Counted from the stretch's first letter, positions 6,987-24,945 are shown. The stretch: 25,176 nt of DNA from an uncultured delta proteobacterium (GCA_963808625.1 CAWEHK010000032.1:1-25176); one strand, 5' to 3'. Made by a program: numbers and translations. The notes: a model not told the origin generated them from the letters alone.

Positions 6987-6998
6987 GAGGAGTGAGAC

Positions 6999-7652
6999 AT
7001 GTCTAAAGGAAAATCAATACTCGTTGATACCTCCAAATGCACGGCCTGCCGAGGCTGCCAGGTTGCCTGCAAACAATGGAACGGGTTGCCCGGGACCAAG
7101 ACCAAGCAGGTCGGAACTTATCAAAACCCCCAGGACGTCTCGGCCCAGACCTGGAAGCTCGTCCGCTTCTCCGAAGGGATCAGAGACAACGGCAAGCCGT
7201 ACTGGTACTTTTTCTCCGAACAGTGCCGCCACTGCCTTGAACCTCCCTGCATGGACGCCATCGGAGGGTACGTAAAGGACGGGGCGACACAGAATGAGGC
7301 GACGGGAGCGGTCATCTTTAACGACAAGTCCAAGGAAGCGCCCCTCGATGAAGTGCGCAACGCGTGCCCCTACAACATCCCGCGCCAGGATGAGAAAACC
7401 AAGGTGTTCTTCAAGTGCACCATGTGTTTGGACAGGATCACAAACAACGGGTCCCGGCTTGCGTCCTGAGTTGCCCGACAGGGGCGATGGTGTTTGGAGA
7501 CCGGGATGCCATCTTGGAAAAGGCGCAAAAGCGCGTTGAAGAGTTGAAGAATACTTATCCGAAAGCCATGGCGCTCAACCCGGATGAAGTGAGAGTAATC
7601 TACATCGTGACCGATGATCCCAAGAAAGTATTATGAATTCGCTGCTGCGTGA
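6999..7652 (+). CDS. fdhB: Formate dehydrogenase beta (Fe-S) subunit, soluble three-cluster type
   Basis: AGGAGG RBS. Motifs CTACRGCQVACKQWN, YQNPQD, CRHCLEPPC, ACPYNIP and KCTMCLDR..PACVLSCPTGA. Frame changes at ~7450 and ~7627; the repaired C-terminus PKKYYEFAAA ends at TGA 7650-7652. Confidence 0.9.
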
Positions 7653-7820
7653 CAGGTGCGGGTGCTCCTTATCATCAATCTGGGGAGACCCCCTGCGGTC
7701 CTGTTGTCAGCAGTCTGGGGACTTGGTGGAAGGTTTTACAACACTGTTGCGCAACCTGGTTCTCTGTTGGTAGCAAGGTTGTCATAGTCGATAATTGTGA
7801 TGCGATTCGGAGCTTTTCAT

Positions 7821-8742
7821 ATGGAACAGAGCGCCCTTGCGAGCGACGCCGCCGACATGATGGCGGCCGCTTTGCACAAAATTGAAACCGAAAACAGGCA
7901 CCTCGAGGGGGTGCTGAAGGCTTTCAGCGGAATCCTCATCGAACAGGCACGCTGGAAGTCGGAGCTGACGGCTGCTGGAATACGAGGAAGCCGGTAATCT
8001 TGAAGCGACACAATTTCACAACGGTTTTCCTCTAAGCGAAAGAGAACGGTTTATCCGGCTTGGTGCGCTATGGCAGACAGCAGCTTGCCGGCTGATACCC
8101 CCCTTGGCGGCGGGTTTCCCCAAAGTCCAGGGAGACCTTGAGCGACTGCAGGCTGCGATCATGGCCGGGCGTTTTGCCCCGGATTTGTTCCTGAGCGCCG
8201 TGCTCGGAGGCAGGGGAACAGAGGCGCGGGAAATTGCCGCCCAAATCGGCCTCGAAGTGGAACTCCTGGCATTTGTCCTGACACAGATTGGAAAGCCGGT
8301 GGTGGAAAAGCGTGCGGAGGCTCTGCAGCCCTCGATAAAAGGCCTTTCCTGGAACAAAGGGTATTGCCCCATTTGTGGTTCCTTTCCCGAATTGAGCCTG
8401 ATTAAAGAGAAGGAAGGCCAGCGCTGGCTGCGGTGTGGTTTTTGCGCAAGCACGTGGCGATTTCACCGGAGCTCCTGCCCCTTTTGCGATGCTCAGGAAT
8501 CAGGTGGCCTTGAAGTCATCTTTGTGGAGGGACGCGAGTACGAGCGGGTCGAAGTCTGTCACCAATGCAGGAAATACATACCCGGCATCGATGTCAGAAA
8601 TCTGGCCGACGAAGTCGTTCTCGAAGCTGCCGGTTTTGCCCTCATGCCCCTTGAAGCCATTGCCCAGGGAAAAGGGTTCTTCCCCATGGTCGGGAGCAAA
8701 TGGAATCTTCTCTCAGGCAACAGGAATGGCCATCAACAGTGA
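7821..8742 (+). CDS. fdhE: Formate dehydrogenase accessory protein FdhE (one frameshift at ~7970-7995)
   Basis: WNKGYCPICGSFP, RWLRCGFCASTWRFHRSSCPFC and CHQCRKY give the four CxxC pairs typical of FdhE. Confidence 0.88.
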
Positions 8743-8982: not shown

Positions 8983-9741
8983 TTATTGCGATCCCGCTAT
9001 TGTTGATGGGATCGGTAATTGTGACATCAGAAACTGATCGACACTCTCCTCCCCACTTCTGCCAAGATGCGGTTTCACCTGACAAACCCGGCCTTCCTCA
9101 TAGATCACGAGCGTTTCCGCAAACACTTTGATATCCTCCGGGTCGTGAGTAATCATTATGACCGGAATGCCGAAGCGCTCCTGGATTTCCAATAACTCCT
9201 TTCGTACTCTTCCGCGCAAGAGTGGATCAAGGGCGGCGAAAGGCTCATCCAAGAGCAGCAGTTCCGGCCGCCCAATGATGGACCGCGCCAGCGCCACACG
9301 CTGCCGCTGGCCGCCTGAGATATCGCGGGGGAAGCTCCGGGCGAGATGGGTTATCTCAAAAACTTCGAGAAACTCGTCAACCCGGCGTCGATCTTTGTTT
9401 GCCAGCCGCCATTGCCACGCTGTTTTGAGTGCAAAAGCCACATTTTCCTCTACGGTAACATGAGGAAACAGGGCGTAATCCTGGAACACATAGCCAATGC
9501 GCCGCTGCCGTGCGGGAATGTTCACGCCGGTTCCGGAATCGTACAGGAGGCGATCCCCTATCACAATGCGTCCGGAATCCGGTTCAGTTAGACCGGCAAT
9601 GGTCTGGAGGCTAAGGGTCTTGCCTGAACCGGACGGGCCGAACAGGACCACGAAATCCTCTTCGGAAGAGAATTTGGCCTTCAAAGAAAAGCTTCTTCCG
9701 TTCGAGCAAAGCTTCTTTTCTATGTCTACCTGAATTTTCAT
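8983..9741 (-). CDS. modC: Molybdate/tungstate ABC transporter ATPase (short, no C-terminal TOBE domain)
   Basis: Walker A GPSGSGKT, Q-loop VFQDYALFPH, signature ISGGQRQR, Walker B LLLDEPF and H-loop ITHD; adjacent to modA and modB. Confidence 0.9.
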   Translation of the reverse strand: MKIQVDIEKKLCSNGRSFSLKAKFSSEEDFVVLFGPSGSGKTLSLQTIAGLTEPDSGRIVIGDRLLYDSGTGVNIPARQRRIGYVFQDYALFPHVTVEENVAFALKTAWQWRLANKDRRRVDEFLEVFEITHLARSFPRDISGGQRQRVALARSIIGRPELLLLDEPFAALDPLLRGRVRKELLEIQERFGIPVIMITHDPEDIKVFAETLVIYEEGRVCQVKPHLGRSGEESVDQFLMSQLPIPSTIAGSQ

Positions 9742-9787
9742 GATCTACTCGACGGCGGGGTCGAAGCCCTCCTTGCCGATGCCAGTG

Positions 9788-10558
9788 TTACGGTTTGCCG
9801 AAACCATACCGAGAGAGTATCCGTTGCCCCTCGGGACTCATCACAAAGGCCACGAAGCGTTGCCCCAGATCTTTCTTCTTCGACGCTGCAATGACGGCGA
9901 TGGGATAACGGATTGGCTCGTGGTTCCCTATGGTTGCGACGACCTCTACCTTGTCTTTTGCGAGCAGGGCGTCGGTTGCGAAAACAAACCCGGCGTCAAC
10001 CTCTCCTCGATTGACATAATCCAGCACCTGCCGAACCGAATCGCCATGGATGAACTTGGGTGAGAGGGCTTCCCATAAGCCTTCGTTCGCCAAAGCCTCC
10101 TGTGTGTAACGTCCCGCAGGAACCGATTGCGGGTTTCCCAGAGCCACCTTCGTGACCTCTTTCATGGTGAGATCGTGCAGGCCTTTGATGGGGAGGGAGG
10201 CGCCCTTGGGAACAATCAATATCAGTTCGTTACTCACAAAGTCCTTGCGGTCACCCATCGCGAGCAAGTTCTTTTCCTCCCCCTGGTTCATGGTCTTCTG
10301 GTCTGCTGCGGCAAAGACATCGACCGGCGCACCCTTGTCAATCTGTTGCAGCAAAGCGCCGGAAGCCGCAAAATTGAAGACCACCGTGGTTCCCGAATTA
10401 GCCCTCTCGAAGTCCTTGCCAACCTCCGCAAAGGCGTTACTGAGACTGGATGCAGCGGAGACGATCAGTTCCTCGTCGGCGAGTGCGGTTCGAACATTGG
10501 AACCGCACCAGGCCACCAGGGGGAGGATCAGCAGGCAAAGCAGCGTTCGTTCTTTCAC
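9788..10558 (-). CDS. modA: Molybdate ABC transporter periplasmic binding protein
   Basis: Signal peptide, then SAASSL, FAASGAL..QI..GAPVDVF, GNPQSVPAGRY, SVRQVL, GFVFATDA and IRYP. Confidence 0.93.
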   Translation of the reverse strand: MKERTLLCLLILPLVAWCGSNVRTALADEELIVSAASSLSNAFAEVGKDFERANSGTTVVFNFAASGALLQQIDKGAPVDVFAAADQKTMNQGEEKNLLAMGDRKDFVSNELILIVPKGASLPIKGLHDLTMKEVTKVALGNPQSVPAGRYTQEALANEGLWEALSPKFIHGDSVRQVLDYVNRGEVDAGFVFATDALLAKDKVEVVATIGNHEPIRYPIAVIAASKKKDLGQRFVAFVMSPEGQRILSRYGFGKP

Positions 10559-11244
10559 TGTTCGATCTCCTTTAGGTAATTGGTGCGAAAGACTTTTCCG
10601 GAAGTGACCAGGATCACCAGGCAGACCAACGAGGTGATGAGGACCAGGGTTGCTGCGAGATGATCATTTCCGGCCTGGACGGCGTCGTAGACGGCAAGGG
10701 AAAGGGTCTGGGTCTTACCGGGAAGATTGCCCGCCACCATCAAGGTTGCGCCGAACTCACCCATGGCACGGGCGAAAGCGAGCATGGTCCCGGCAAGGAT
10801 TCCGCGCCATGCCAGGGGAAAAGACACCCGAAGGAAGATTTCACCCTCGGATAAACCAAGGGTCCGTGCGGCCTTCTCCAGGTTGTGATCGACCCCTTCG
10901 AAAGCGGCTCGCGCTGCCTTATAGACAAGAGGCAGGGAGACCACCGCTGCAGCCACCACCGCTCCCTGCCACGTGAACATCAGGGAGATTCCGAAAGTCT
11001 CGTTCAGCCAGCGGCCGATCCATCCATTTCGACCTAATATTACAATGAGATAGTAACCGAGTACGGTCGGCGGCATGACCAGCGGTAAGGTCAAAACGGC
11101 ATCCAGCCACTCACGACCCCGGAATTTATGCCGCGCGAGCAAAAAGGCCAGGCCGACACCGACCAGGAATGCCGTGACCGTTGCCGCACTGGCTACCTTT
11201 AAGGTCAACAATAAAGGCGTCAGGGTCTTGATGCCGCTCGTCAT
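10555..11244 (-). CDS. modB: Molybdate ABC transporter permease
   Basis: LPLVMPPTVLGYYL, EAA loop (LEKAARTLG) and FARAMGEFGATLMVAGNLPGKTQT. Confidence 0.93.
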   Translation of the reverse strand: MTSGIKTLTPLLLTLKVASAATVTAFLVGVGLAFLLARHKFRGREWLDAVLTLPLVMPPTVLGYYLIVILGRNGWIGRWLNETFGISLMFTWQGAVVAAAVVSLPLVYKAARAAFEGVDHNLEKAARTLGLSEGEIFLRVSFPLAWRGILAGTMLAFARAMGEFGATLMVAGNLPGKTQTLSLAVYDAVQAGNDHLAATLVLITSLVCLVILVTSGKVFRTNYLKEIEQ

Positions 11245-11496: not shown

Positions 11497-13251
11497 TTAA
11501 ACGGTATTTCCATTCAGTACTTGAAGCGTAAAGCTCCCCTCACGATAACGAATCACATTCAAACAGCCGTAATCCTGGTCGATTTCAAACAGCCTGGCTA
11601 ACGACATACCCAAGACCTGGCATAAGATGATCCGGTTGACACCGGCGTGAGCGACAATGAGCACATTGCCCCGGCTGGCGTGAAGAATGTTAAAAAAGGC
11701 CGGGATCACCCGCTCTGTGCAATCCAAAAAGCTTTCACCTCCAGGAGGCCGGTAATGGACCATATCGCGGCCTCTTTCCTCGAACTCCCCCGGGTACCTG
11801 GCGCGCACTTCCTGAAAGGTCAGGCCATCCCACTGGCCCAGGTTAATTTCCCGTAGTTCCGGGCGCTGGACGGGGGTGGGGCAGTTGCGCGTCCCGGCGA
11901 GGATGACGGCGGTTTCGACGGACCGTTTGAGGTCACTGCAGAAGATTGCTGACAGGTGAACGTCTCGGAGTTCGGCCTGCAGTCGCCGGATCTGCTGGAC
12001 TCCTTCTCTGCTCATGGGGTAATCCACTTGGCCGATGAACCGCTTGCCGCCTTCTTCAACCTGAACAGCCCCATGCCTGACCAGGAAAATTTTTCTTTCG
12101 CCGCTGTTGGAAACGGCCTCGAGGTTCCTCTTATACCTTTGAATGATTTGTTCCAGCGGTTGCCCCAGCAACTCCTCAGCGGTCGCCTGGATGAGCCGGG
12201 CATCGGTCAGGCGCTTGACAACCGCTTTCAGGATTTTAGGGGTCCTCGCGTATTTCTCGAGGGCGCCCGCGAAGCGATCCTCAAATGAGACCAGTTGGTC
12301 GCCGGCAACGTACTTATCCGCCAGATAAACCAGGTCCGCTTCCCGCAGTGTTTCCTTCCCATGACTGATATCCATGTGCGACGCTGCCACTTCCGCGACG
12401 CGCGGATATCCGAGCTTCACCAGCAGTTTGCCGGCCCTTCGGGCATGATCGGGTTGGCCCTTGGCGATATCGTGCAGAAAGCCTGCTGCCACAATGAGAT
12501 TCAAATTCAGGCCCAGTCCCGCCAGGTTAAGGTGCACCGCCAGCAGGCGTGCCAACTGGGATACCACCCGGGAATGGGCGATCACCCTCTCGGGAACGCG
12601 ATAATGAACCCACACCGCCTCGCATTCACGGTCCGTCGGAATGTCTTCCCTTTCGGCGTAGGCGCGTATTTGTTCATAGTCAGCAGGCGTGTCACAATCC
12701 ATGAGGATTGCCTGGTCCACCACCTCGACCTCCCTGGCCATGGGTTCATATTGCGTGAGGAAAGCCCTCAATCCCCCCGGGTAGTTGATCGGCAGGTCTT
12801 TTGGAATGCACTTGGTGGAAATGAGAGGGGGGTGGCCCCGCTGTTCTTGGAACCGCGGATAAATGATTGCCGAACCGCAATCAGCGTAAGCTCTCGCGAG
12901 TGTTTGAAGGGTTTTCGGTTTAACGAGCGGAATGTCCACCGGAAGCAAAAAAAAGGCATCGACACTGGATTCCAGGCTTCTTATTCCCGCCAGGACCGAG
13001 GAGAGCATGCCGATCTCGTACTGCTCATTAAGCACCCAGCGAATCCCCAGGCGATCGAGAATCGGGATGATCTCACCGGCCTTATACCCCACCACCACCC
13101 GTATGTCCGTAATTCCGGCCTTGGCAAAACGGGCTATGGCTTGCTCCAAAACGGTGGAACCTCCGACCGGCAGGAGGGGTTTGAAGGCTCCCATTCGCGA
13201 CGAATATCCCGCAGCGAGAATCAGGGCGCACAGCCTTGCTTTCGCCATCAC
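11497..13251 (-). CDS. MocA/MobA-like nucleotidyltransferase + HD domain + histidine-phosphatase fusion (DVU_1551-like)
   Basis: ILAAGYSSRMG..KPLL, LPVDIP, GHPPLI and DCDTPADY (NTP transferase); HSRVV..LHDIAK..H..H..YLADK (HD); LVRHG..SDLKRS..LREINLGQWDG..GGES..AHAGV (His phosphatase). Alternative ATG start at 13248. Confidence 0.88.
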   Translation of the reverse strand: MMAKARLCALILAAGYSSRMGAFKPLLPVGGSTVLEQAIARFAKAGITDIRVVVGYKAGEIIPILDRLGIRWVLNEQYEIGMLSSVLAGIRSLESSVDAFFLLPVDIPLVKPKTLQTLARAYADCGSAIIYPRFQEQRGHPPLISTKCIPKDLPINYPGGLRAFLTQYEPMAREVEVVDQAILMDCDTPADYEQIRAYAEREDIPTDRECEAVWVHYRVPERVIAHSRVVSQLARLLAVHLNLAGLGLNLNLIVAAGFLHDIAKGQPDHARRAGKLLVKLGYPRVAEVAASHMDISHGKETLREADLVYLADKYVAGDQLVSFEDRFAGALEKYARTPKILKAVVKRLTDARLIQATAEELLGQPLEQIIQRYKRNLEAVSNSGERKIFLVRHGAVQVEEGGKRFIGQVDYPMSREGVQQIRRLQAELRDVHLSAIFCSDLKRSVETAVILAGTRNCPTPVQRPELREINLGQWDGLTFQEVRARYPGEFEERGRDMVHYRPPGGESFLDCTERVIPAFFNILHASRGNVLIVAHAGVNRIILCQVLGMSLARLFEIDQDYGCLNVIRYREGSFTLQVLNGNTV

Positions 13252-14288
13252 TGAGCGCGTCCGGCCCGGGCCTGGATCAATTCCGCCACAATACAGGCCG
13301 CAATCTCCTCGGGGGTTTCTGCGCCGATATTCAACCCAATGGGGGAATGAACGCGGGCGAAATCCTCAGCGGTAAATCCCTCCTCGGCGAGTACCTGATA
13401 GGTGGCATCCCGCTTTCTTCTGCTGCCAATCATGCCGATATATCCCGCACCCGTTTTCAGTGCCTGTGCCAGAACGGTCTTGTCGTGAACGTGGCCGCGC
13501 GTCACGATCACGAGGTAGCTCTCTTCGTCAACAGCCTGATCTTTCATGGCTTCATCGAAGGATTTCAGCACCACGATGCCGTCGGCTGTACCCAAGAGCT
13601 CCCGGTTGGCGAATTCTTCCCGGTCATCGAGGACCACCGTGCGAAAGCCGACAAATTTCGTCAAGTGGGCAAGCTTCTGGCCAATATGTCCGGCCCCGAA
13701 AATGTACACGGTCCCCTCCGACGAGAGGGGTTCGATGAAGAAGCGCTTCCCTTCATGGGTGACGACGCTGGGCTGCGTTGAACTGGCCTCCACAAGAAGC
13801 TCTTTCAAGCGCAACAACCCCTCATCGTCAAAAGATCCGCCACCGTCCTTGAAAACATAAATCGCCGGGGGGCCATCGCTCACTTCTTCATCAGGAAGCA
13901 TGATGGTCAGCCACGCCCGTCTTTTCGAGGCCAGGGTGGCCAGAAGTTCCTGATAAAGCGCCAGGCGAGCTGGTTGAGAGGCATCCTCCCGATGCAGGAG
14001 AAATTCCACATCGCCGCCGCAGATCATCCCGATCGGGGTGGGACCTTCACGGTTCAGCGAATACTTTCCGACCATGGTCTTACCCGATTGGAAGACCTCT
14101 CTGGCCAGTTGCTGAACTCTGGCTTCCAGCACCCCGCCGCCAATGCTCCCGATGATCGAACCGTCGCCGCGGATGACCATCCGCGATCCCACATCCCGCG
14201 GAGCCGAGCCACATCGGCTGAGAATCGTAGCCAGGACGAGGCTCTCCTCCTCCCGCAACAACTCTACAATGCTTTCAAAAATAGTCAT
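13248..14288 (-). CDS. xdhC: XdhC/CoxI-family Moco chaperone for xanthine-oxidase-family enzymes
   Basis: GSAPR..GSIGGG..E, GMICGG, FGAGHI, DDREEFAN, VTRGH..D, YIGMIGS and SPIGLNIGAETPEEIA. ATG 14288 follows GAGG; the track start is 14303. Confidence 0.92.
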   Translation of the reverse strand: MTIFESIVELLREEESLVLATILSRCGSAPRDVGSRMVIRGDGSIIGSIGGGVLEARVQQLAREVFQSGKTMVGKYSLNREGPTPIGMICGGDVEFLLHREDASQPARLALYQELLATLASKRRAWLTIMLPDEEVSDGPPAIYVFKDGGGSFDDEGLLRLKELLVEASSTQPSVVTHEGKRFFIEPLSSEGTVYIFGAGHIGQKLAHLTKFVGFRTVVLDDREEFANRELLGTADGIVVLKSFDEAMKDQAVDEESYLVIVTRGHVHDKTVLAQALKTGAGYIGMIGSRRKRDATYQVLAEEGFTAEDFARVHSPIGLNIGAETPEEIAACIVAELIQARAGRAQ

Positions 14289-14299
14289 GATAAGAATCC

Positions 14300-15646
14300 T
14301 CAACTCCTAATGATGGTGATGGTTCGCTTGCTGCTGCCAGATAACGGGTGAGGGGTTCCTTTCCGGACGGTTGTTGAAACCGCAATCGTTCCTTCCTGTA
14401 CGGCAATTCGCAAGTCCGGAATGCCATGCAAAGCTCGGTAAATATCATCCGTTCTGCGTTCACCGTTCTCATCCAGCACGGTTGCTGTGATTTTCAGGTG
14501 GTTCATGCCTTGCTCGTGGGTGAACGCAGCCGAAAAATCGAGGAGCCCCTCGATTGGGAAAAGCGCTTCATCCAGATCTGCCATCGTCAGCACCTTTCCG
14601 GACGCGAGATCAACCGAGTCTTGAATGCGTCCCCTCACGCATGCCATGGCCTTCAAAACCGTCCCACATGAGCATGGCTCGGTGATAAACCGACTCAAAT
14701 CACCCGTGCGATACCTGATCAGCGGCATGCCCCGCCGGGTAAGCGTCGTAAAGACCACCTCTCCCGTCTTGCCGTCCGGCAACGGCTCGCCCGTCTTCGG
14801 GTCGACGATTTCAAAATAAAGATCCGCTTCCCGCATGTGATAACCTTGTCTTGCCTCGCACTCAACGCCACCGCCAAACCCCATCTCCGTCATGCCATAA
14901 TGGGTGTAAACCTCACAGCCCCAGATCAAGTGCAGCTCTTTCTTTATGGAATCCGGAACATAGTCGGTGCTCAGCAACACGCTTCGAGGGGCCGGCCTTC
15001 CCTTGCTGTACCTGGCGAGGGCAAGGACCTGCACCGGAATGCCAACCAGAGCATCGATGCCTTCCCTGACCATAACCTCTAACGCCTCGGGATAATCCTG
15101 AACGGGCCCATAGACTACCGCTGATGTGCCGAGACGTTGGAGTCCCGTGGCCAGCAAATCTCCCACGCTGCCGGGACGCTCGCCTGGCAAGAGAATCAGC
15201 ACACGCTCGCCGGGGCTTACCAGGGTGGACATACCCCTGTGGAAGAAATCAACCGTAAGCTCCTGGTCCTCCCCGGTGAAATAGATTCGCTTGGGCATGC
15301 CTGTTGTCCCTGAGGTGTGGAGCGTTACCACCCGATTGATTTCGCTTTGCGAGACACACAAAAAATGCAGAGGGTTTTGCCTGATATCCTCAGCGGTAGT
15401 GAAGGGAATGCGGTGAAAGTCTCCGAGACCGCGGAATTCCCTTTCGCTCAGACCGGCAAGATGCCTTCTGTAGAAGGAGCTTTTTGTCCTGGCCCAGGCA
15501 AACGTCTCTTGGAGCATTAGCCGCTGGTGGTGTTCAATTTTTTCTCTGGTGAGCGGGTCCGAGCCACTGCCTATCTTGCCCGAAACCCAGCTCTCCAGCG
15601 GAGTCCTCTTCATGGCACTCTTCCCAGTAAGAATTCGCGCGTTCAT
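14300..15646 (-). CDS. PaaK-like (phenylacetate-CoA ligase family) adenylate-forming ligase, substrate unknown (DVU_1553-like)
   Basis: SSFYR, IPFT, P-loop HTSGTTGMPKR, HYGMTE, EIVDP..G..GEVVFTTL..GMPLIRYRTGD and CSCG..GR. Confidence 0.85.
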   Translation of the reverse strand: MNARILTGKSAMKRTPLESWVSGKIGSGSDPLTREKIEHHQRLMLQETFAWARTKSSFYRRHLAGLSEREFRGLGDFHRIPFTTAEDIRQNPLHFLCVSQSEINRVVTLHTSGTTGMPKRIYFTGEDQELTVDFFHRGMSTLVSPGERVLILLPGERPGSVGDLLATGLQRLGTSAVVYGPVQDYPEALEVMVREGIDALVGIPVQVLALARYSKGRPAPRSVLLSTDYVPDSIKKELHLIWGCEVYTHYGMTEMGFGGGVECEARQGYHMREADLYFEIVDPKTGEPLPDGKTGEVVFTTLTRRGMPLIRYRTGDLSRFITEPCSCGTVLKAMACVRGRIQDSVDLASGKVLTMADLDEALFPIEGLLDFSAAFTHEQGMNHLKITATVLDENGERRTDDIYRALHGIPDLRIAVQEGTIAVSTTVRKGTPHPLSGSSKRTITIIRS

Positions 15647-17028
15647 CTTTCATCGGTAAGGGGAATTTGAGAACCCTTTCGGTAAAGGGGTCGCCCCTTG
15701 CTGTCAGTGAGATTGTAAGCACAAAAGGGGATGAGCCTGCCATCGGGATGGAGGACGTGGAGGTGGCATTCCCTGAGACGTTGCAGGTCGAGGTTCCAGG
15801 CATCTTGAAAGGCCATGCCGGAAAGGCAGAAGGAATGCGTCCGAATGCGCTCCAGGAAAAGATCCCACCCGCCAAGGCTGGGCCCTTTTTCCTGCGAGCA
15901 ACAGGAACTACCGGGAGATGCCCAGAACTGCTTCTGAAACTGCTGAGCCTTAACCGCCCCCAACCCTCCATCTTTACCCTGACAGCAGGCACCCCCAGAG
16001 TTATGCGCGGTCCAGGGCTTGAGTTCCCCTCCCGGCATGAGCACAAAATTCCCATGGAATGAGCAGTGCCAGTGCTCCGAGCCGGGCGGTCGGAAGTGCT
16101 CCGTTTTGATCATCGCATCCGTCTGCTTCTCGATTTCGGTTATGATCTCGGGAATGGTAATCCGGAGGTGGTCTCGGAAGAGACCGTTGTACCGGCCAAA
16201 ATAACTCATCGGCTGGAAGTGCACTCCCCGAACCATGGGCAGCCGGGTCCTGGCGAATTCGATGATGGCGCCAATCTGGTGGATATTGACGCCGGGAACC
16301 AGGGTCGGCACCAGGATCACCCCCAGTTCGTGTTCCAAGCAATGTTGGATCGCGCGTTCCTTTTCATAGAAAAGCGGCCGGCCCCTCAGTTTTTCGTAGA
16401 TTTCATCTTCAAGACCGTCAAACTGTAAGAACACGCATGATAGCCCGGCTTCCTTGAGCCGCCTGACGTAGCCCGGTTCCCGAGCCAAACGGAGCCCGTT
16501 GGTGTTGAGCTGGATAAAGTCAAACCCCATGGAGCGCCCAAGGGAGATAATTTCGGCCAGGTCTTCGCGAACCGTTGGCTCCCCTCCCGAAAGCTGCACA
16601 TTGTAGGGGCCTCCGGCGGCCAGAAGGGCCTGGTACATCCCTTGAATCCCGCGGAAATCCGGGTCATCGTCGCCGCCATTGCCGGAATCGGCAAAACAAA
16701 CATTACACTTGAGATCACACCGCTGGGTCACCTCAATCAAGGTACAACAGGTCTGCTGGCGATGTTCGGGGCAAAGGCCACAGTCCCAGGGACAACCTCG
16801 TTCCACGGTGGTCAAGGGGGCTCGGGGGTAGGCGGGGAGCTTCGGCCTGCTCCAGGAGGCATGCGAAGGCTCGCCCCGCCAGATCACAGCCTCGAAGGGA
16901 CCATGCTCAGGGCAGCGTTTCTTGAGCACGACCTGATCACCCTCAGCAACTCTCCGGGCCGGTATGCGAACAAAGCATTCCGGGCAAACGCTCTCTGTTT
17001 GGGAAAGAACGATCTCACCTGCCATCAT
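15643..17028 (-). CDS. trsS: Radical SAM protein with Tes/MJ0619-like motifs (TrsS/DVU_1554-like)
   Basis: Core CDLKCNVC, QLSGGEPT, NTNG and LQFDG; N-terminal TESVCPEC..KRCPEHG and CPWDCGLCPEH; C-terminal HCSFH, RLRECH and IPFCAYN. The symbol rests on recalled family and synteny, not on a search. Confidence 0.85.
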   Translation of the reverse strand: MMAGEIVLSQTESVCPECFVRIPARRVAEGDQVVLKKRCPEHGPFEAVIWRGEPSHASWSRPKLPAYPRAPLTTVERGCPWDCGLCPEHRQQTCCTLIEVTQRCDLKCNVCFADSGNGGDDDPDFRGIQGMYQALLAAGGPYNVQLSGGEPTVREDLAEIISLGRSMGFDFIQLNTNGLRLAREPGYVRRLKEAGLSCVFLQFDGLEDEIYEKLRGRPLFYEKERAIQHCLEHELGVILVPTLVPGVNIHQIGAIIEFARTRLPMVRGVHFQPMSYFGRYNGLFRDHLRITIPEIITEIEKQTDAMIKTEHFRPPGSEHWHCSFHGNFVLMPGGELKPWTAHNSGGACCQGKDGGLGAVKAQQFQKQFWASPGSSCCSQEKGPSLGGWDLFLERIRTHSFCLSGMAFQDAWNLDLQRLRECHLHVLHPDGRLIPFCAYNLTDSKGRPLYRKGSQIPLTDER

Positions 17029-17468
17029 TTCCCACCGGAAAGGTCAAAGCCGTATTCGATCAACAGGGCTTTCGCTTTCTCATAGGTTCCGAGCACCATG
17101 TTTGGGCATCTCGCCGTACGGTTCCTGGGATCATCCCCCAGAATGATTTCGCAGCGAATTCCCCCAAAGAGCTTGCCATATTCCTCTGAGAACCAGTCCA
17201 CCAGCTCGCTGACCATGAGGTTCAGCTTTTCGTCTTCCTGCTCCTCGGGAGTCCCTCTGCCAGCGTATAGTCCCAGCAAACAGGCGCCGCCGGTGAGGGC
17301 GCCGCAGGTATCCCCGGTAAAACCCAACCCTCCTGCGAGCGCGGACATGGCCCGAATCAACTCCGGGTTGCTTTTGCCCTGGGCCTCCAGACCCATAAAG
17401 AGCAAGATCTGGCTGCAATAAAATCCCTGGCCCGCCAGTTGAATCATCCGAAGCATTTCATCGGTCAC
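17025..17468 (-). CDS. C-GCAxxG-C-C family putative redox/metal-binding protein (DVU_1555-like)
   Basis: FYCSQ, GGLG..TCGALTGG, IRCE and RCP give the four-Cys pattern. GAGGAGG RBS before GTG. Confidence 0.88.
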   Translation of the reverse strand: MTDEMLRMIQLAGQGFYCSQILLFMGLEAQGKSNPELIRAMSALAGGLGFTGDTCGALTGGACLLGLYAGRGTPEEQEDEKLNLMVSELVDWFSEEYGKLFGGIRCEIILGDDPRNRTARCPNMVLGTYEKAKALLIEYGFDLSGGK

Positions 17469-17489
17469 GACTGCACCTCCTCATCAATT

Positions 17490-18251
17490 TCACGTCGCAG
17501 AAAGGCCCGCTCTCCTGGTGCCGGTCGCCTTCCGGGCCACGCACAAAAAGTATCCTGGCTTAGCCTGGGCAATGGCTTCGAACGTGGCGGAGCACCAGTC
17601 GCCATTGCCTTTACCTTGATCAGCGGGACACCAGAACTGCGGCACCGTACCGTGGGACAGAATGAGCTGAGCGACGAATTCCTTCAGGGCGCGAGACTGA
17701 TCTTCCCAAAACGTCACCTGAAAGCCATGGGCATTCAATTTCTTGGTCAGCTCTTCCCTGCTTAGGATTCCGGTGAAGCGACAATCCGGCAGCAGACCAC
17801 AACCGCCGCCGGCAACAGAGGAATCCCTGTTATACACATCACTCAGAATGAGCCGCCCGGTATCCGTCAATACCCGGGAGCATTCTCCAAGCACTCCGTC
17901 AGCGTTCTTCGCCACGGAAAGGCTGCATTCGACAAAAACCCCATCCCATACCGAATCCGCGAAGGGGAGATCCTCTCCGACAGCCAGCACCAGGGGCAAG
18001 CGATGGTTTCTCCGGTGGCCGTATTCCAGGAGAACCGAGGACGGATCAATCCCTACGGCACGCAGTCGGTGACGGCTCATCAAGTGTTCCACCGTACCTC
18101 CGGCGCCACATCCTACATCCAGGATGCGAGCGCCAGGGGGGAACAGGCAGAAAGAGAGTGTTCTTTCGGTTAGCGCAAGCCCGCCAGGCCTGAGAAACTC
18201 ACCGGCGGCGCCACTTGCAGCTAATTTTTCATATATTTCGGTTGCTGTCAT
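17490..18251 (-). CDS. Class I SAM-dependent methyltransferase (DVU_1556-like)
   Basis: LRPGGLALT, ILDVGCGAG, GIDPS, EDLPFAD and RVL..GRLILSD. ATG 18251 chosen because the longer track ORF overlaps the upstream gene. Confidence 0.88.
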   Translation of the reverse strand: MTATEIYEKLAASGAAGEFLRPGGLALTERTLSFCLFPPGARILDVGCGAGGTVEHLMSRHRLRAVGIDPSSVLLEYGHRRNHRLPLVLAVGEDLPFADSVWDGVFVECSLSVAKNADGVLGECSRVLTDTGRLILSDVYNRDSSVAGGGCGLLPDCRFTGILSREELTKKLNAHGFQVTFWEDQSRALKEFVAQLILSHGTVPQFWCPADQGKGNGDWCSATFEAIAQAKPGYFLCVARKATGTRRAGLSAT

Positions 18252-18294
18252 GATCCACTGCCGACGATCCCAGAACAATGAGCGAAGAGGTTCC

Positions 18295-18507
18295 CTACTT
18301 ATCTTCGAGGATCCTTTCCACTTCGGCCATCTTCCCCAGGGCGAGAGCTTCGGGGATGAACCCCTGCCCACACTGGGGACATTGAAGCAAATCCACGGGA
18401 AACATGCTTCCGAGATAGGCGATGTTGACCTTTCCCATCTGCAACGGAAGGTCACATCTCAGACACTGGAGAGTGGCGCCCTCGGGCGAGCTGTCTTGTT
18501 GGTTCAT
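18295..18507 (-). CDS. Small CxxC-CxxC (zinc-ribbon-like) protein (DVU_1557-like)
   Basis: CLRC..CPQCG; the start overlaps the upstream stop (ATGA) and follows a GGAGG RBS. Confidence 0.8.
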   Translation of the reverse strand: MNQQDSSPEGATLQCLRCDLPLQMGKVNIAYLGSMFPVDLLQCPQCGQGFIPEALALGKMAEVERILEDK

Positions 18508-20849
18508 GGCTTTGCTTCCTCCACAATTTCCATGCGGTGACTGTAGGCGTTATGAATGACAAAGCCGTCACCGTGGCGAGAGTACTCCACCCAATAAGTC
18601 ACTGCCGCCGGCTTATGATGGGCCAGGAGGTGTCCGGTCCGGCGATCCAGGAGCTTCGTGTTGGTCGTTTCCGCAAAATGAATAACGGCGAGGAGGTCCT
18701 CTTCGAGGATTAACCGTTTGTCCATAAGTTCCTGTACGTCAGGAGAAATACCCAGTTTGACCGCTTCATATCCTTCCATTTCAGCCACGGTCTCCCCCCA
18801 CAGGTCTTTCAGCATTCTGTTCTTCAGCTTCGCGCGGTTTTCGTGACGCTGCGAATAGCCCGGTCCTCTGCGCTCGGATGGGTCGCCGCCGCTTGTGCAG
18901 ATCAGATCCAGCAGGTGGAGCGTCCGCTTTCCACGAGCTGCAAAGTTGTCCCGGCACATCGCGCAATATGCCAAGTAGTCGGCTTCGCTATCGTGAATCC
19001 GGCGGTGGACGACCTTGTCTGCGACCTCGGGATTAGCGAACGCCATATGGCCGCCATAACCGCAACAAGTCGTGAGGCGGCGATTGTCTTTCAGCTCGGA
19101 CACCTGCACTCCCAGCTTGCCCAGCAGGTGGCGAACCGCGTCCTGAATGTCATTTTCGTACCTGGTGGCGCAGGGATCGTGAATGGCAACCAAGGCAGGG
19201 CTTGCCGGGGCGGTCGAGGGCGGCAACCCAACCCGGTCGAGCACCGTCCACAAAGATTCGACCGGCATGGCTGGCGCATGACCTTTGAACATCCGGTAAC
19301 AGCTTGAACAGGCGGTGATGACTTTCGGGGACCCCAAGTCCTCCCACTGCTCACGAACCAGTCCGATGGTATCTCCGAAGATTTCCTTTCGTCCGGCCCA
19401 CTCAGCGGGTGCGCCGCAGCAACCCAGGATCAGTCCAACCCCGCCCTCGATGCTTTGCTGTAAATGTTCATATATTTTGAAGACCTGTCCGGGCAAGGAT
19501 GCGCTCAGTTGACAGCCAGGAAAGAAGACGTGCCCGCTCGTCTCGCGGCCGGGCTGATGACGCGCAAGCGTAAAGGCCTCACTGGTGCTGAACGCCATGT
19601 CCCGTAGCGCAAATTCATGCACCGAAGGGGGCATCTTGCCCTTTTCCACCATGGCCTGCCGCGTTTCCAGGCAGTCTTCGCCCATGTCGAGCTTCTCCGG
19701 GCAAACCGCCCCACACAGTCCACACAGAGCGCATGAGTTCATCAGCGGGTTAGCCAGATGATTACCTAAAACGATGCAATAATTATTATAGAGCTCGCGG
19801 ATGTAGCGTCTCGGATACGATTTATAGTGCGCAAGGTACTCGCACACCTTCACGCACTCCAGGCACTCGCAATGGAGGCAGCGCTTTGCTTCCACAATCG
19901 CCTCTTCCCGGGTGTAGCCGTCCTGCGGCTGGGCCGGTGGAAGCGTGGCTTCCGGTGCGATTCCCTTGATGCTGGTGAAAAGCCTCGTTTTGAACGGTCC
20001 CTGCTGATCGCGGTTTGCCGACAGAGACGCCTTTTGCAGGAAGCGCTCGATGGACAGTACCGCATAGCGGCCGTCATGAACCGAGGTAATGGGGGAATAT
20101 GCAGCGGAACCGTAGCGCTGGCTGCCGCCGGCAAACACCTTGGGGTTGCTGGTGGCAAAGGTCAGTTCTTCAATCGCGATGCATCCGTTATCTCGAAGCG
20201 CCAGGTCCTGTCCAAAAAAGGCGGCACCGGACGGCCCCACGCCCAGATACACGGCGTTGAATTCTTCGACGACGGCGCTCAGGCTTGGTCCTGTTTGCGC
20301 GTGGCCACCGACCTGCGTGTTCAAACGCACCTCGACGAGCACATTTTCAAGCAGTGCAAGGTCTTCGTCAATCCATTGCTGCGGCAGCTCATCTTCGCCC
20401 AGTTCCCTTAGTCGTCCAGCCAGCCGTTTGCCGGCCTCAAAAAGGACAACCCCGTATCCTTTTGCGGCCAGGTCAAGGGCTGCAGTCAGTCCGCTCAAAC
20501 CGCCTCCTACAACCGCAATCCGCGCGTTCTTCTTGGACGAAAACGTGGCGCCCGCTGCCCGCTTTGTGGAATAGGCCACACATGCACGCTCCAGGGCGTT
20601 GATCTGGATATAGCCCCCTATTTCATGGCGCTTGCACTCCGGCTGGCAGGGATGGTCGCAGATCCGGCTGATGATGCGCGGAAGAGGAACGAACCGGTTA
20701 AACACGGCAAACGCAGCGGTGAAATCCTGCTTGTGAAAGCACTCGATCATGCCGCGTGCGTCGACGTGAATCGGGCATGCAGCCGTACATTTGGGCGGCT
20801 GTTCCTGAATGCACTGATTCTCGCGCTCCCTTACTCGCTGGGGGTCCAT
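18504..20849 (-). CDS. Multidomain Fe-S/FAD oxidoreductase with dicluster and two CCG-like domains (DVU_1558-like)
   Basis: GltD/DPD-type N-terminal Fe-S motifs (CIQEQPPKCTAACP, RICDHPCQPEC), FAD motif GGGLSG, CLHCECLECVKVC and CALCGLCGAVC, then FFPGC..CCG..CSSC and HDPC..CCG..CAMC. GGAG RBS. Confidence 0.87.
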   Translation of the reverse strand: MDPQRVRERENQCIQEQPPKCTAACPIHVDARGMIECFHKQDFTAAFAVFNRFVPLPRIISRICDHPCQPECKRHEIGGYIQINALERACVAYSTKRAAGATFSSKKNARIAVVGGGLSGLTAALDLAAKGYGVVLFEAGKRLAGRLRELGEDELPQQWIDEDLALLENVLVEVRLNTQVGGHAQTGPSLSAVVEEFNAVYLGVGPSGAAFFGQDLALRDNGCIAIEELTFATSNPKVFAGGSQRYGSAAYSPITSVHDGRYAVLSIERFLQKASLSANRDQQGPFKTRLFTSIKGIAPEATLPPAQPQDGYTREEAIVEAKRCLHCECLECVKVCEYLAHYKSYPRRYIRELYNNYCIVLGNHLANPLMNSCALCGLCGAVCPEKLDMGEDCLETRQAMVEKGKMPPSVHEFALRDMAFSTSEAFTLARHQPGRETSGHVFFPGCQLSASLPGQVFKIYEHLQQSIEGGVGLILGCCGAPAEWAGRKEIFGDTIGLVREQWEDLGSPKVITACSSCYRMFKGHAPAMPVESLWTVLDRVGLPPSTAPASPALVAIHDPCATRYENDIQDAVRHLLGKLGVQVSELKDNRRLTTCCGYGGHMAFANPEVADKVVHRRIHDSEADYLAYCAMCRDNFAARGKRTLHLLDLICTSGGDPSERRGPGYSQRHENRAKLKNRMLKDLWGETVAEMEGYEAVKLGISPDVQELMDKRLILEEDLLAVIHFAETTNTKLLDRRTGHLLAHHKPAAVTYWVEYSRHGDGFVIHNAYSHRMEIVEEAKP

Positions 20850-21081: not shown

Positions 21082-23818
21082 CTATTTCTTCCCTTCCAGG
21101 GCCGCCTTGATCCTTTCGGGAATGGCGGGCATCCTTAGCACACGAGCGCCGACCGCGTTGTAGATGGCGTTAGAGCACGCCGGATGAACACTGGTCATCG
21201 AGACTTCACCAACGCCGGACTGACCCAGGAGACCCACCGGACGCGGTGTTTCCAGGTACAGGAGCTCGAAGTCATCGGGAACGTCGTTCGGGTATGGGAT
21301 ACCGCACTTCTGGAGGCTGGTGTGCACCTTCAGGTCGTCGAAGTCCTCGGTCAGGCCCATGCCCATGCCCTGTGCGATGCCGCCGTAGTTCTGACCGTCG
21401 ACCGTAATGCGGTTGATAATCTTACCTACGTCAATAGCCGACGTGATCCTTACGCATTTGGTTTTGTAGGTCTTGGTGTCCACTTCCAGCTCGACAATGA
21501 AAACACCGTACATGTATGTCCCGAACGGTGCTCCCTGACCGGTGGTTTCACTGCAGGCCGTGCAGCCAGGAACAGTCCACTTGCCGTCGTAACGCAGAGG
21601 GATATTTTCCGCTTTCATTTCCTCGTACGTACGGTAGGCACCGTCGGGCTTCAGCATTGCCTGCACCAGCATCCGGCAAGCCACCGTGATCGCGTTGCCG
21701 GTCATCACGTTCGAACGGCTGCCGCCGGAAGGACCGGAGTTCGGGTTGCGCGTATCGTTCATGTTCAGCTTGATCTGGTTCGTTTTGATGCCCATCGGAC
21801 GCAACGCCTCGTAGGCGAAGGTGAGCGAACCAAGATCCGAGCCCTGCCCATGATCCTGCCAGGCGTTGTGAATCATCACGTCGCCATTGGGGAGCAGTTC
21901 TGCCGCCGCCTCGGAACCGTCGGGACCATCGAGACCGGCGCCGTACACGCCCAGCGCGAGGCCGATGCCATAAGCCTTGCCCGGAACATTGTAGGCCGCC
22001 TTGCGTTTCTTTGCCTCTTCCCACTTCGGCTGAATCAGTTTGAGCAGCCCTTCCATGCAGTACACTTCCGGTTCCTGCCCGGTCGGAGTCGTATGGCCTT
22101 GACCTTCCTTGTAGCAATTCCTCAAACGCAGCTCGAGCGGATCGATACCCATTTTTTCCGCGAGCATATCCATGGCGATTTCGCCGTTGAGGAACGACTG
22201 CGGGTGAGCCATATGCGCGGAACGCCGAGCCCCAGGCGTGGTTGGTCGCAACCGTGTAACCCTTCGCGCGGATGTTCGGGACGTTGTAACCGGCGCCCAC
22301 AAACTGTGCCTGGCGTATGGTGAGGAGGTCGCCGAATTCGGAATACGGGCCGTGATCCACCCACCAGGTATATTCCAGCGCGGTAAGCTTGCCGTCTTTA
22401 TCCGCCCCCCATTTGGCTTTGATTTCGGCCGGCGAACGCTTTCCGGTGTAGGTGATGTTCTGGTACTGGTCGTAGACCAGGGAAACCGGCCTGCCGTCCA
22501 CGGCCAGGCAAGCTACGCCCAAAAGACCTTCCATGGTCGGGCTGAACTTGTAGCCAAAAGTGCCGCCGGTTGGGTTCTGAATAAGGCGCAGCTTCTCGGG
22601 TGGGACTCCGATGCCGGGGCAAATCATGGCATGGTGCAGGTGCAGGCCTATGCTTTTGGACTGGATGGTCAGCGTGCCGTCTTCTTCCATGTAGGCTAAG
22701 CCGCAGTCCGGCTCCAGGTGCAGGTGGGGCTGACGACTGTTGTAGGTTGTCACCTCGACCGTGCAGGCTGCCTTCTCCAAAAGCGGCCCGGTCTCTTCGC
22801 CCTTCACGACGCCCTGCTCGTAGTAAGCATTCGGAACGCCGGGGTGGATTTCCATGGCGTCCGGTGCCAGGGCCTCGTAACCGCTCATGTAGGCGGGCAG
22901 GACTTCCAGATCCACCTTGACCTTCTTCGCGGCGGCCCTGGCATGTTCTTCCGTATCCGCGGCTACGATAGCGATCGCATCGCCAAACTGGAACACCTTC
23001 TCTTTGCAAAGAATCGGGCGGTCCCATCCGTCGCCCTTGTTGGTCGGGAAAGTGATGAGGCCGGTAATCGCGTTCTTGCCTTTCACGTCCTTCCAGGTGA
23101 TGACCTTGACCACGCCGGGCATCTTTTCCGCTTCCGAGGTATCGATGCCTTTGATGTTGGCGTGCGACACCTCGGCCTGGGTCAGAGCCAAACGCAGAGT
23201 GCCCTCCGGCATGCGCAAGGCAAGGTCGGCGCCGAAATCCCAGGTACCGGTGACCTTTGCCACGGCCGACGGGCGCACAAAATTGCTTCCGACCATGGTG
23301 ACCGGGCTTTCCTGGGAATTGAGAATCTGTTCGGGCTTAATCTCGCCGCGCATAATCCTGGCGGCATCCATCACCGCGTTGATGAGGGGCTTGTAACCGG
23401 TGCAGCGGCACAGGTTGCGATTCCTCTGGAACCAGTCGCGAACCTCCTGCCGGGTCGGGTTATTGTTGTTGTCCAGCAGAACCTTGGCGGACATGATGAA
23501 GCCCGGTGTACAAATACCGCACTGCGCGCCGCCGTGAGCCATCCAGGCGATCTGTAACGGATGCAAATTTTCGGCGGTGCCGATGCCTTCGATCGTGGTG
23601 ATCTTTGCCCGCTCCGGGAGCTTCTGCATCTTGGTAACGCAGGCTCTGACCGGCTTGCCGTCCACTACAACCATGCAGGTGCCGCAATGGCCTTCGTTGC
23701 AGCAGACTTTACATCCCGTCAGCAGCAGGTTCTTCCTCAGCACCGTAGCCAAGGAAGTCTCGGGCTCGGCTATTAGCCAGCGATCAATTCCGTTGATGTT
23801 AAATAACATCCTCTTCAT
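21082..23818 (-). CDS. mop: Molybdopterin (MCD)-dependent aldehyde oxidoreductase, single-chain Mop type (one frameshift at ~22203)
   Basis: [2Fe-2S] motifs CKVCCNEGHCGTC and QCGICTPG..CRCTGY; AKVTG, GGTFGYK, AFRAYGSP-Q, HGQG, SGGSR, DGQNYGG and SGVGE (catalytic Glu). About 911 aa after removing one base; no FAD domain. Confidence 0.93.
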
Positions 23819-23857: not shown

Positions 23858-24884
23858 CTAGGCGCCCTTTCCAAAACCGCAATCCGGATACCTGCACCCC
23901 TCGCACTGGACACAGAGCCCACCGTGGGCCAATTTGACAAAGTCTTTCCGCGTCATTTCTTCGCCCGCCAGAATGCGTGGCAGCACCACGTCGAAAATAC
24001 TCGTCTTGTGGTACATGACACAGCCGGGAAGCCCCATCACCGGGACCTCTCCCAGATAGGCGAGCATGAACATGGCGCCCGGAAGCACCGGGCTGCCATA
24101 GGTCACCACCCGGCCTCCCGCGGCCCTGATTGCGGCAGGGGTGACATCGTCCGGGTCAACCGACATGCCCCCGGTAACCGTGACCATCTGGGCGCCGTCG
24201 CGGATGAAGCTGCGGATGGCATCGACGATCTGATCGACCTGGTCGGACACCAGGGTCTGCCCGATGACGTGACATCCCGAGTTCCTCCACCTTCTTCATA
24301 ACGACCGGGCCGAACTGGTCCTTGATCCGACCGTGGTAGACTTCACTGCCGGTCGTGACAATCCCCACCTTGAGGGATCGAAAGGGCTTTATTTCGATCA
24401 AGGGAGTGTAGCGCCGGCATATGCTTTCAACTTCCTTGATCTTCTTTTTGTCGATGACCAGAGGAATGATCCTGGTCCCGGCGACGGTTTTTCCTTTCTT
24501 ACTCGCTGATCCGTGTGAAGGGTGGAAAAGACGACTTGGTCAACGGAATTGACTGCCTCAAGTGCCTCGATCTGGATCTTTAGAAGACCGTCACGGGCTG
24601 CAATCAGATCGACTTTCCTTCTTTGGGTTCCCCAAGTGTGATTCCCTGCCCCACAGCAGCTCCCGCTATACGCCTGGCAGCCTCATTCTCATGCAAAAGA
24701 CCACTGTGGATTTCCCAGACATAGAGATGTTCTTTACCGATGTTGAGCAGCGTCGGGATGTCATCCGGCTGAACAATGTGTCCCTTTCTGAACGCCGGGC
24801 CTTTGAACTGGCCCGGTATGATCTGGGTCACATCGTGACAGAGAACCATTCCCAATGCCTCCTGCACCGGGACTGTCTTATCAT
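23858..24884 (-). CDS. MoeA-like molybdopterin-binding protein with C-terminal 4-Cys motif (frameshifted in this sequence)
   Basis: Joined frames give LCHDVTQIIPG..KGPAFRKGH, LHENEAA, VTTGSEVYHG, TGGMSVDPDDVTP, YGSPVLPGAM and CVQCEGCRYPDC. AGGAAGG precedes ATG 24884. About four frame changes. Confidence 0.85.
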
Positions 24885-24945
24885 GATGGTTCCTTCCTGG
24901 TTAAATGCGGCCAGGACGTTTTCCGCAAACAGTGCACGCTATCGT

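Follow-up and report, generated by a model that had tools for sequence, protein, structure and literature searches.

What is the role of eight co-oriented genes that lie between an aldehyde oxidoreductase gene (mop) and the molybdate transporter genes modBAC in an uncultured delta proteobacterium? The window, that is, the whole analysed stretch of 25,176 nucleotides (GCA_963808625.1, CAWEHK010000032.1:1-25176), encodes there a radical S-adenosylmethionine (SAM) enzyme (TrsS), a PaaK-like adenylating ligase, a methyltransferase (MT), a C-GCAxxG-C-C protein (CGA), a small zinc ribbon of the DVU_1557 family (the finger), an oxidoreductase with CCG motifs (Ox), XdhC and a MocA fusion (Table 1). 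The initial annotation took them for one module attached to Mop and offered three roles, namely (a) tailoring of the pterin cofactor, (b) activation and modification of the acid made by Mop, and (c) processing of a metal(loid) on Cys-rich carriers. Our comparison leads to a tentative answer of a different kind. The cluster may combine a Mop maturation kit (XdhC and MocA-HD) with a separate core that would load or mature a Lys-tailed carrier, whose lipoic-acid-like sulfur arm could act as an electron shuttle.

The gene set itself is not new. The description of eight intact genes with overlapping or near-abutting ends was confirmed, since neighbouring genes share 4 nt at five of their seven junctions and are separated by 43 and 21 nt at the other two; the block lies 232 nt from mop and 252 nt from modB. 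All eight genes exceed the cut-off of their own dedicated NCBIfam model (the DVU_1551-1558 series and radical SAM TrsS: NF045663, NF045645, NF045667, NF045669, NF045646, NF045666, NF045664 and NF045665), and the adjoining mop gene is of the MOP type (NF045668; its frameshift is absent in relatives). The D. vulgaris DVU_1551-1559/TrsS neighbourhood (NF045645, NF045646, NF045663-NF045669) has the same gene order with every model passed, and the order given in the initial annotation for DVU_1551-1560 agrees with the six tags checked (DVU1553, 1554 and 1556-1559; PMC10102598, supplement table 5). The window copy differs from this D. vulgaris type by a Ser at the Cys/selenocysteine (Sec) site of TrsS and by the phosphatase fused to MocA-HD. 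According to the same supplement, all six D. vulgaris genes are non-essential, mutants exist, and insertions in the finger gene are tolerated; this transposon-sequencing (RB-TnSeq) supplement gives essentiality, without per-condition fitness. A selenoproteome review, in its available part, lists TrsS as a selenoprotein family and cites Haft and Tolstoy 2025 (PMC13188914). No functional study of the cluster appeared in the literature searched by gene tags, TrsS and aldehyde oxidoreductase/operon terms. Therefore, as anticipated, this is a real, catalogued and functionally unsolved cluster, in which XdhC and MocA(-HD) alone are genes of molybdenum cofactor (Moco) maturation. Four features described below, namely a core independent of Mop, the invariant Lys, the pairing of a RelE-like fold with an MqsA-like finger, and the dihydrolipoyl dehydrogenase variant, were not found in the literature examined, although Haft and Tolstoy 2025 or its supplements may already note Mop-less loci.

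The families are kept together widely. The set is kept, in many cases with an unchanged gene order, in 79 TrsS loci from Desulfobacterota, Bacillota and Chloroflexota, with other phyla represented by single members. Among the 42 loci with full 10-kb flanks, the ligase was present in 42, DVU_1557 in 40, MT in 39, the C-GCAxxG-C-C protein in 39, Ox in 38, Mop in 37, MocA in 32, XdhC in 31, the phosphatase in 31 and HD in 30. This conservation is far beyond chance; the loci were fetched via TrsS or the finger, kin included, so the tallies are not independent. A less biased view is given by the comparison of 301 genomes of the phylum, in which TrsS above cut-off was found in 30 and an intact Mop in 20, all among those 30. 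In the ten TrsS genomes without an intact Mop, mop was broken or split in two (G000, G242) and missing in eight. The finger family also occurs in 30 genomes, of which 29 carry TrsS and one (G078) a truncated TrsS; in the thirtieth TrsS genome (G294) a divergent finger copy was found with a purpose-built profile. In a clostridial sample of 399 genomes, TrsS exceeded the cut-off in 19, and the fetched loci were mostly of the Mop type, some of them dispersed.

The core, however, does not require Mop. Haft and Tolstoy are said to have linked TrsS strictly to aldehyde oxidoreductase, whereas eight of the 30 TrsS genomes have no Mop. Conversely, TrsS was found in 20/20 intact-Mop genomes. Among 11 Mop-less genomes tested, six (90-100% completeness, two families, five of the six being kin) contain the core and no xanthine-oxidase (XO)-family domain, and five lack XdhC. 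The attachment of the module to Mop as such is therefore not upheld, and the independence of the core argues against tailoring of the molybdopterin cytosine dinucleotide (MCD) cofactor as its general role. Nor is the cluster a single unit. In split operons, Mop, Ox and the finger stay as one block, while MT-CGA-TrsS-ligase moves as another. A MoeA-HD-MocA-XdhC group adjoins an XO-family enzyme in a genome without TrsS (G198, L167); XdhC and MocA-HD are a generic MCD kit, separate from the core. The fixed core comprises the C-terminal domain of Ox (OxC), the DVU_1557 zinc finger, MT, TrsS and the ligase. Fusions of TrsS with MT (L041, L046, L052), of TrsS with the ligase (L037) and of OxC with the finger (L095) tie these parts together.

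The feature on which the proposed carrier rests is the end of the finger. Its C-terminal residue is Lys in 115 of 118 distinct complete copies, and in the other three a Lys stands two residues from the end. In other module proteins, a terminal Lys was much rarer (9/79 CGA, 9/80 MT and 7/99 TrsS-like sequences, about 11% or less). The finger is held by 91/91 loci with a DVU_1558-type CCG enzyme, in a set likewise fetched via TrsS or the finger, it travels with Mop-Ox, and it is duplicated in five cases (G141, G109, G558, G709, L085); it therefore resembles a substrate more than a maturase. Searches of domain libraries returned DUF7479 and zinc ribbons only, with no lipoyl-domain fold, and a PDB sequence search with the finger profile gave generic zinc fingers only. 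The matches of MqsA/YgiT-finger models were weak, in 23 and 20 of 57 members, and the LysW model touched 8 of 57 (best E 0.01). As a side observation, the second finger copy of G109 lies behind a peptide deformylase-OxC chimera (L159:9000-11052) and adjoins a NifU-like gene and a metallo-beta-lactamase-fold hydrolase, both identified by eye; it is probably a duplication remnant.

OxC lies directly upstream of the finger in 113/118 copies and is a stand-alone gene in many Mop-less loci, including genomes without the CCG enzyme. Its AlphaFold2 (AF2) model (pLDDT 91.5) resembles BrnT (Z 7.9, root-mean-square deviation 2.5 over 73 residues), MqsR (Z 5.9) and also YoeB and related RNases, and its His81-Arg82 pair is nearly invariant. 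The best Z, 7.9, falls short of the tool mark of 8, but 30 of the 34 top rows are toxin, CdiA or nuclease by title. The top Foldseek matches were HP0894 and YafQ, none at E<=0.001, with DUF4258 as a lead only. A mixed OxC/finger alignment (A4) was misaligned and served for member-wise Pfam scans only. The model suggests that OxC and the finger may be a domesticated toxin-antitoxin-like (MqsR/MqsA-like) pair, in which a predicted RelE-like fold is directly followed by a CxxC/CxxC finger with weak MqsA/YgiT similarity. This pair differs from MqsR/MqsA-type systems in the absence of a DNA-binding domain, in the usual fusion of the toxin-like domain to an oxidoreductase, and in its metabolic operon. 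The pair, the near-invariant terminal Lys and the mop frameshift were features absent from the initial annotation.

TrsS is the sister of the tetraether lipid synthase Tes (GDGT-MAS; 7TOL/7TOM), with E 1e-86 against 7tol. A FastTree tree of 31 sequences places all TrsS as the sister group of Tes, and the Mop-less types form mostly one clade, L095 excepted. TrsS shares with Tes the rubredoxin site, two auxiliary [4Fe-4S] sites, the radical SAM triad and the labile Met. C15/C18/C39/H42, C79/C83/C86/H89, the triad and C322/C421/C436 are retained at 85-86/86, as is M405, equivalent to Met439 of GDGT-MAS (nine Tes-like or outlying rows and five truncated or TGA-containing rows were excluded from the count). 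By alignment, every ligand of the four GDGT-MAS metal sites is kept, including the cluster that forms the C-S bond. In the available part of PMC9433317, this C-terminal cluster is described as making the substrate C-S bond, with the thiolated lipid detected. TrsS differs from Tes in its partner genes, which are fixed, in an extra invariant Cys94, in Val for Tyr459 (70/86), in the Cys/Sec site at position 317, five residues before a cluster ligand, and in a C-terminal region shorter by 38 residues between two aligned blocks, where the second lipid pocket would lie. Moreover, the window protein scores 357 bits against the Tes model NF045702, below its cut-off of 450. The window TrsS has Ser317 and no in-frame TGA at the PPG-U-E site; in-frame TGA codons were seen in TrsS of L053:325-1650, G549:C203 and G684:C15, with that of L053 at the PPG-U-E site and a hairpin shortly downstream. 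A complex prediction for TrsS, ligase and finger scored 0.07 against a mark of 0.32 without folded controls, and so is evidence neither way; a single-sequence TrsS fold (pLDDT 35.5) was left unused.

The remaining proteins supply possible partner activities. Ox consists of Fer4_20, a shortened GltD-like FAD Rossmann region, Fer4_17, two complete CCG motifs and OxC, and each CCG cysteine is kept at >=92% in 80 aligned sequences. The ligase departs from PaaK in an invariant His249 and in a PGxxPGSVG loop. It has a conserved Lys440 and scores below the PaaK family cut-off (132 vs 646 bits, TIGR02155); its nearest solved relatives act on aryl acids. MT, present in 99/111 TrsS loci, has intact SAM motifs and Cys109 in 74/76, with the first Cys in 68/72 and the second Cys motif in 57/72. 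CGA carries the near-invariant cysteines C18, C55, C106 and C121 and is possibly an Fe-S or sulfur carrier; its PDB sequence search gave only a weak split-Soret cytochrome match (E 0.12). The HD and phosphatase domains of the MocA fusion have intact, conserved catalytic motifs.

Taken together in a putative mechanism, the most economical of the readings although held with low confidence, the PaaK-like ligase would acylate the C-terminal Lys of the finger, and TrsS would insert sulfur into the acyl arm. The thiol arm could then pass electrons between an aldehyde-oxidising enzyme, e.g. Mop, and the CCG (HdrD-like) or an E3-type disulfide enzyme. OxC would serve as the dock for the finger, MT may catalyse S-methylation or tailoring of the acyl group, and CGA is possibly the sulfur donor. 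Known systems offer partial parallels. LysW, the amino-group carrier, is a small zinc ribbon with a C-terminal Glu, loaded by an ATP-grasp ligase. The finger is likewise a small zinc ribbon with a conserved last residue as the proposed attachment point, but it ends in Lys, and its ligase is AMP-forming. Lipoate assembly on LbpA for the sHdr complex by sLpl(AB) and LipS1/LipS2 (PMC10332631, available part) follows a similar logic, in which a small protein is charged at a Lys by a ligase, sulfur comes from radical SAM enzymes, and Hdr-like or E3 enzymes would cycle it. In contrast to lipoate assembly (LipA/LipB, LplA, LipS1/S2), however, no part here is homologous: the ligase is PaaK-like, the synthase Tes-like, the acceptor a zinc ribbon ending in Lys and not a lipoyl domain, and a methyltransferase is added.

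The surroundings of the core differ from one Mop-less locus to another. Three of these loci (L057, L069, L110) encode a dihydrolipoyl dehydrogenase (E3) with intact CxxxxC and His-x4-Glu motifs together with two tandem TrsS paralogs, and no CCG enzyme was found within the fetched DNA; E3 with tandem TrsS paralogs recalls LipS1/LipS2 lipoate assembly. In G301 and G302, the locus E3 is additional to other E3 genes. The second TrsS paralog, in the two copies inspected, has lost the N-terminal auxiliary cluster motif and kept the radical SAM triad and the C-terminal cluster ligands; Cys317 is clear in that of L069, and a metagenome scan with this paralog gave one weak match. A histidine phosphatase after the ligase in L069 was dropped as evidence, its sequence looking like an ordinary phosphoglycerate mutase. 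Other neighbours of Mop-less cores are three NAD-dependent aldehyde dehydrogenases (L097), a tungsten (W)-type aldehyde oxidoreductase (L097, L098), HGD-D/BadFG pairs (L088, L069), HGD-D (L110), RACo and corrinoid genes on the opposite strand (L092, L093), a dimethyl sulfoxide (DMSO)-reductase-family enzyme (L095) and a pyridoxal phosphate (PLP)-dependent decarboxylase (L094).

Several points weigh against the carrier with a sulfur arm. The recycling partner is not universal, as four of five genomes tested in one family (f45) have neither a DVU_1558-type CCG enzyme nor an E3 in the locus. The TrsS of the three E3 loci form one clade, approximately one event, and in G475 the locus E3 is the only E3 found and GcvH is present, so this E3 may serve GcvH. 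G459 has TrsS and the ligase, and no finger was found there. The finger lacks the fold of a lipoyl domain, its conserved last Lys could function in docking without any covalent bond, and CoA thioesters are the usual products of PaaK-family enzymes. MT is nearly universal in TrsS loci, yet a free-thiol shuttle needs none. In the D. vulgaris proteome of PMC10920352, Mop had 66 peptide-spectrum matches (PSMs) and DVU_1558 had one (accession-tag mapping partly inferred), so that Mop does not have Ox as a stoichiometric subunit in the conditions used; the same data set has no rows for the accessions inferred for TrsS, ligase, MT, CGA and finger. A second D. vulgaris proteome lists DVU1559 and none of five other tags in its available part (PMC11784015).

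Options (b) and (c) of the initial annotation are kept among the rivals. It is decidedly doubtful that the acid from Mop or another aldehyde dehydrogenase enters a soluble pathway, being made a CoA ester, methylated and modified by TrsS, with the finger as a rubredoxin-like carrier and Ox reducing TrsS. Aldehyde enzymes of three cofactor types (Mop, the W-type and the NAD-dependent enzymes) do flank the core, the HGD-D and BadFG neighbours point to acyl-CoA chemistry, the nearest solved ligases act on aryl acids, and aromatic aldehydes are oxidised by the D. gigas aldehyde oxidoreductase (PMC10223205, available part). Such a pathway leaves the exact terminal Lys unexplained, several Mop-less loci (L088-L096) have no aldehyde enzyme nearby, and the His249 and loop of the ligase differ from PaaK. 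A carrier-based biosynthesis of the LysW or mycofactocin kind, with the modified Lys or acyl group released as a cofactor or metabolite, is unlikely. OxC next to the finger, even as a stand-alone gene without the CCG enzyme, could provide the releasing His-Arg site, and a methylation step suits a finished small molecule. The core encodes no peptidase, and to our knowledge RelE-fold proteins are RNases or gyrase inhibitors, not amidases. Duplication of the finger next to each redox enzyme is easier to reconcile with a partner that is used repeatedly. Quite improbable is metalloid chemistry, in which an ArsM-like MT would methylate As, Se or Sb on cysteines and TrsS would join the methylated metalloid to a carbon chain. 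It would agree with the two Cys motifs of MT at seemingly ArsM-like positions, the TGA at the Cys317 site of some TrsS, and a few orphan TrsS beside CobW, ArsR or NifX-like genes. MT lies, however, far below the ArsM models (33-45 bits, not exceeding the MenG score, where the cut-offs are 240-575; 33.8 vs 263 bits for PRK11873), its first Cys is Ala in the E3-type MT, and the scanned neighbours included no ars efflux genes.

Modification of the pterin, or re-reduction of the Mop dithiolene, is very improbable as the task of the core. TrsS and the finger do occur in every intact-Mop genome, the D. vulgaris proteome, as far as that data set extends, shows the partner proteins at levels about as low as those of XdhC and MocA, L084 and L085 have the finger immediately after a second XO-family enzyme, the ligase is fused to MocA-HD-phosphatase in L055, and the D. 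gigas enzyme is unusual in needing no sulfido ligand (PMC10223205, available part). With MoaC present in 4/5 genomes tested, a generic pterin role keeps a small probability. Cofactor tailoring nevertheless fails as a general role because the core occurs without an XO-family enzyme and without XdhC; moreover, the cofactor released from the D. gigas enzyme functions in the nit-1 assay (PMC10223205, available part). It is extremely unlikely that OxC has kept a function in cleaving or binding RNA and is restrained by the MqsA-like finger, with the core modifying RNA or controlling OxC. Its predicted RelE/BrnT-like fold and the MqsA/YgiT resemblance of the finger agree with this, and so does a conserved late His as in YafQ, whose His87 (position from the PDB title) we take to be catalytic. 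OxC is, on the other hand, usually fused to an Fe-S oxidoreductase, a helix-turn-helix domain is lacking, five proteins tested had no PADLOC match, and the tolerated finger insertions in D. vulgaris are unlike those expected for a true antitoxin. The least probable of all is a Tes-like C-C coupling of fatty acids supplied by Mop and the ligase. TrsS is sister to Tes with all metal sites kept, but its sub-threshold Tes score, shorter C-terminal region and replaced Tyr459 speak against it, and true Tes genes occur elsewhere in the phylum without these neighbours.

Those genes above the Tes cut-off were seen in five genomes (L102, L103, L104, L106, L107). Tes/TrsS-related radical SAM clades under both cut-offs occur in L099, L100, L101 and L105, with a tandem pair in L105, and in rearranged or orphan loci NifX-like, ArsR with CobW, and DUF5714 genes stand directly beside TrsS (Table 1). 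Further observations concern the surroundings of cluster copies: MftF, the glycosyltransferase of mycofactocin, encoded immediately upstream of mop in G141 (L160:14911-16377), a CoA-disulfide reductase-like gene, below cut-off, convergent with the Mop-Ox-finger block (L172:4761-6218), a sigma-54 activator beside clostridial copies (L109, L112, L116, L117, L176; DhaR-like in L176), and, upstream of the finger, what looks like FtsW fused to an incomplete XO-family enzyme (L084:6299-9262), which is a misassembly or pseudogene.

Table 1. Positions of the features in the window and in compared loci, with the matches that define them.
Feature	Positions	Strand	Basis
Eight genes, ORFs	11497-20849	-	no internal stops
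MocA-like nucleotidyltransferase-HD-histidine phosphatase fusion	11497..13251	-	NF045665, PF12804, PF01966, PF00300
XdhC-family Moco insertion chaperone	13248..14303	-	NF045664, PF02625, PF13478
DVU_1553-family PaaK-like adenylating ligase	14300..15646	-	NF045666; PaaK structures E 6e-33
TrsS radical SAM enzyme, sister of Tes/GDGT-MAS	15643..17028	-	NF045646 665 bits, cut-off 490
DVU_1555-family C-GCAxxG-C-C protein (CGA)	17025..17468	-	NF045669, PF09719
DVU_1556-family class I SAM methyltransferase (MT)	17490..18251	-	NF045667
DVU_1557-family zinc-ribbon protein, CxxC-x24-CxxC, C-terminal Lys	18295..18507	-	NF045645
OxC, C-terminal domain of Ox, RelE/BrnT-like fold (modelled), near-invariant His-Arg	18507..18779	-	AF2 model, structure comparison
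Ox, DVU_1558 type	18504..20849	-	NF045663 1030 bits, cut-off 530
mop, Mo-MCD aldehyde oxidoreductase, D. gigas MOP type	21082..23818	-	NF045668 in two pieces; 1sij E 2e-234
moeA-like molybdopterin-binding gene, several frameshifts	23858..24885 (5' end approximate)	-	PF00994, TIGR00177 in separate frames
modB-modA-modC molybdate transporter	8983..11244	-	profile matches
Second TrsS paralog	L069:11283-12572, L057:4785-6068, L110:8185-9474		
TrsS-adjacent genes in rearranged/orphan loci	L118:10703-11086, L127:10346-10753, L120:7730-9367, L124:8515-9237, L125:10344-11114		

In the window, a frameshift of 1 nt near 22203-22205 divides mop into two pieces, and NF045668 was matched in two frames (954 + 527 bits). 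At 22205, the contigs of close relatives have one base fewer in three of the four sequencing runs compared, these runs containing <=0.15 of the words. The moeA-like gene, with one extra base at 24275 relative to one relative contig, and the fdh genes are likewise frame-broken. Because relatives lack the base and these other genes are also broken, the mop frameshift is likely an assembly indel. The genes of formate dehydrogenase alpha, beta and FdhE at 3936-8742, after FmdE-, ModE- and FdhD-like genes, lie broken in several frames and fit an indel-rich assembly. The nearest relatives are Syntrophobacteraceae genomes. Against one relative (L009), the two Mop halves show 68% and 54% identity, while its TrsS is 90% identical; from the sequence comparison, the 5' portion of the cluster, from mop to MT, seems to have been exchanged with respect to the 3' portion. 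Promoter and terminator scans gave matches at chance level.

D. gigas MOP is a structural model for XO-family enzymes, without FAD, and its partner is only presumed to be flavodoxin (PMC10223205, available part). Since every intact MOP-type gene in the 301-genome sample is accompanied by the core, the physiology of MOP is probably tied to it. A wider claim, that a second lipoyl-like system was an independent invention of anaerobes from at least six phyla, with a domesticated toxin-antitoxin pair as dock and carrier, PaaK-type acylation, a Tes-type S/Se insertase, and aldehyde oxidation wired to Hdr-like or E3 chemistry, is doubtful. If the proposed carrier is real, it would represent a new kind of protein-bound redox carrier or cofactor, a new reaction for enzymes related to Tes, and a case in which metabolism has recruited a toxin-antitoxin pair. 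Should the mechanism prove wrong, the independence of the core from Mop and the constancy of the Lys would still steer study away from pterin tailoring, and the finger, a protein of 70 residues, makes an unsolved catalogue entry testable by its intact mass in D. vulgaris.

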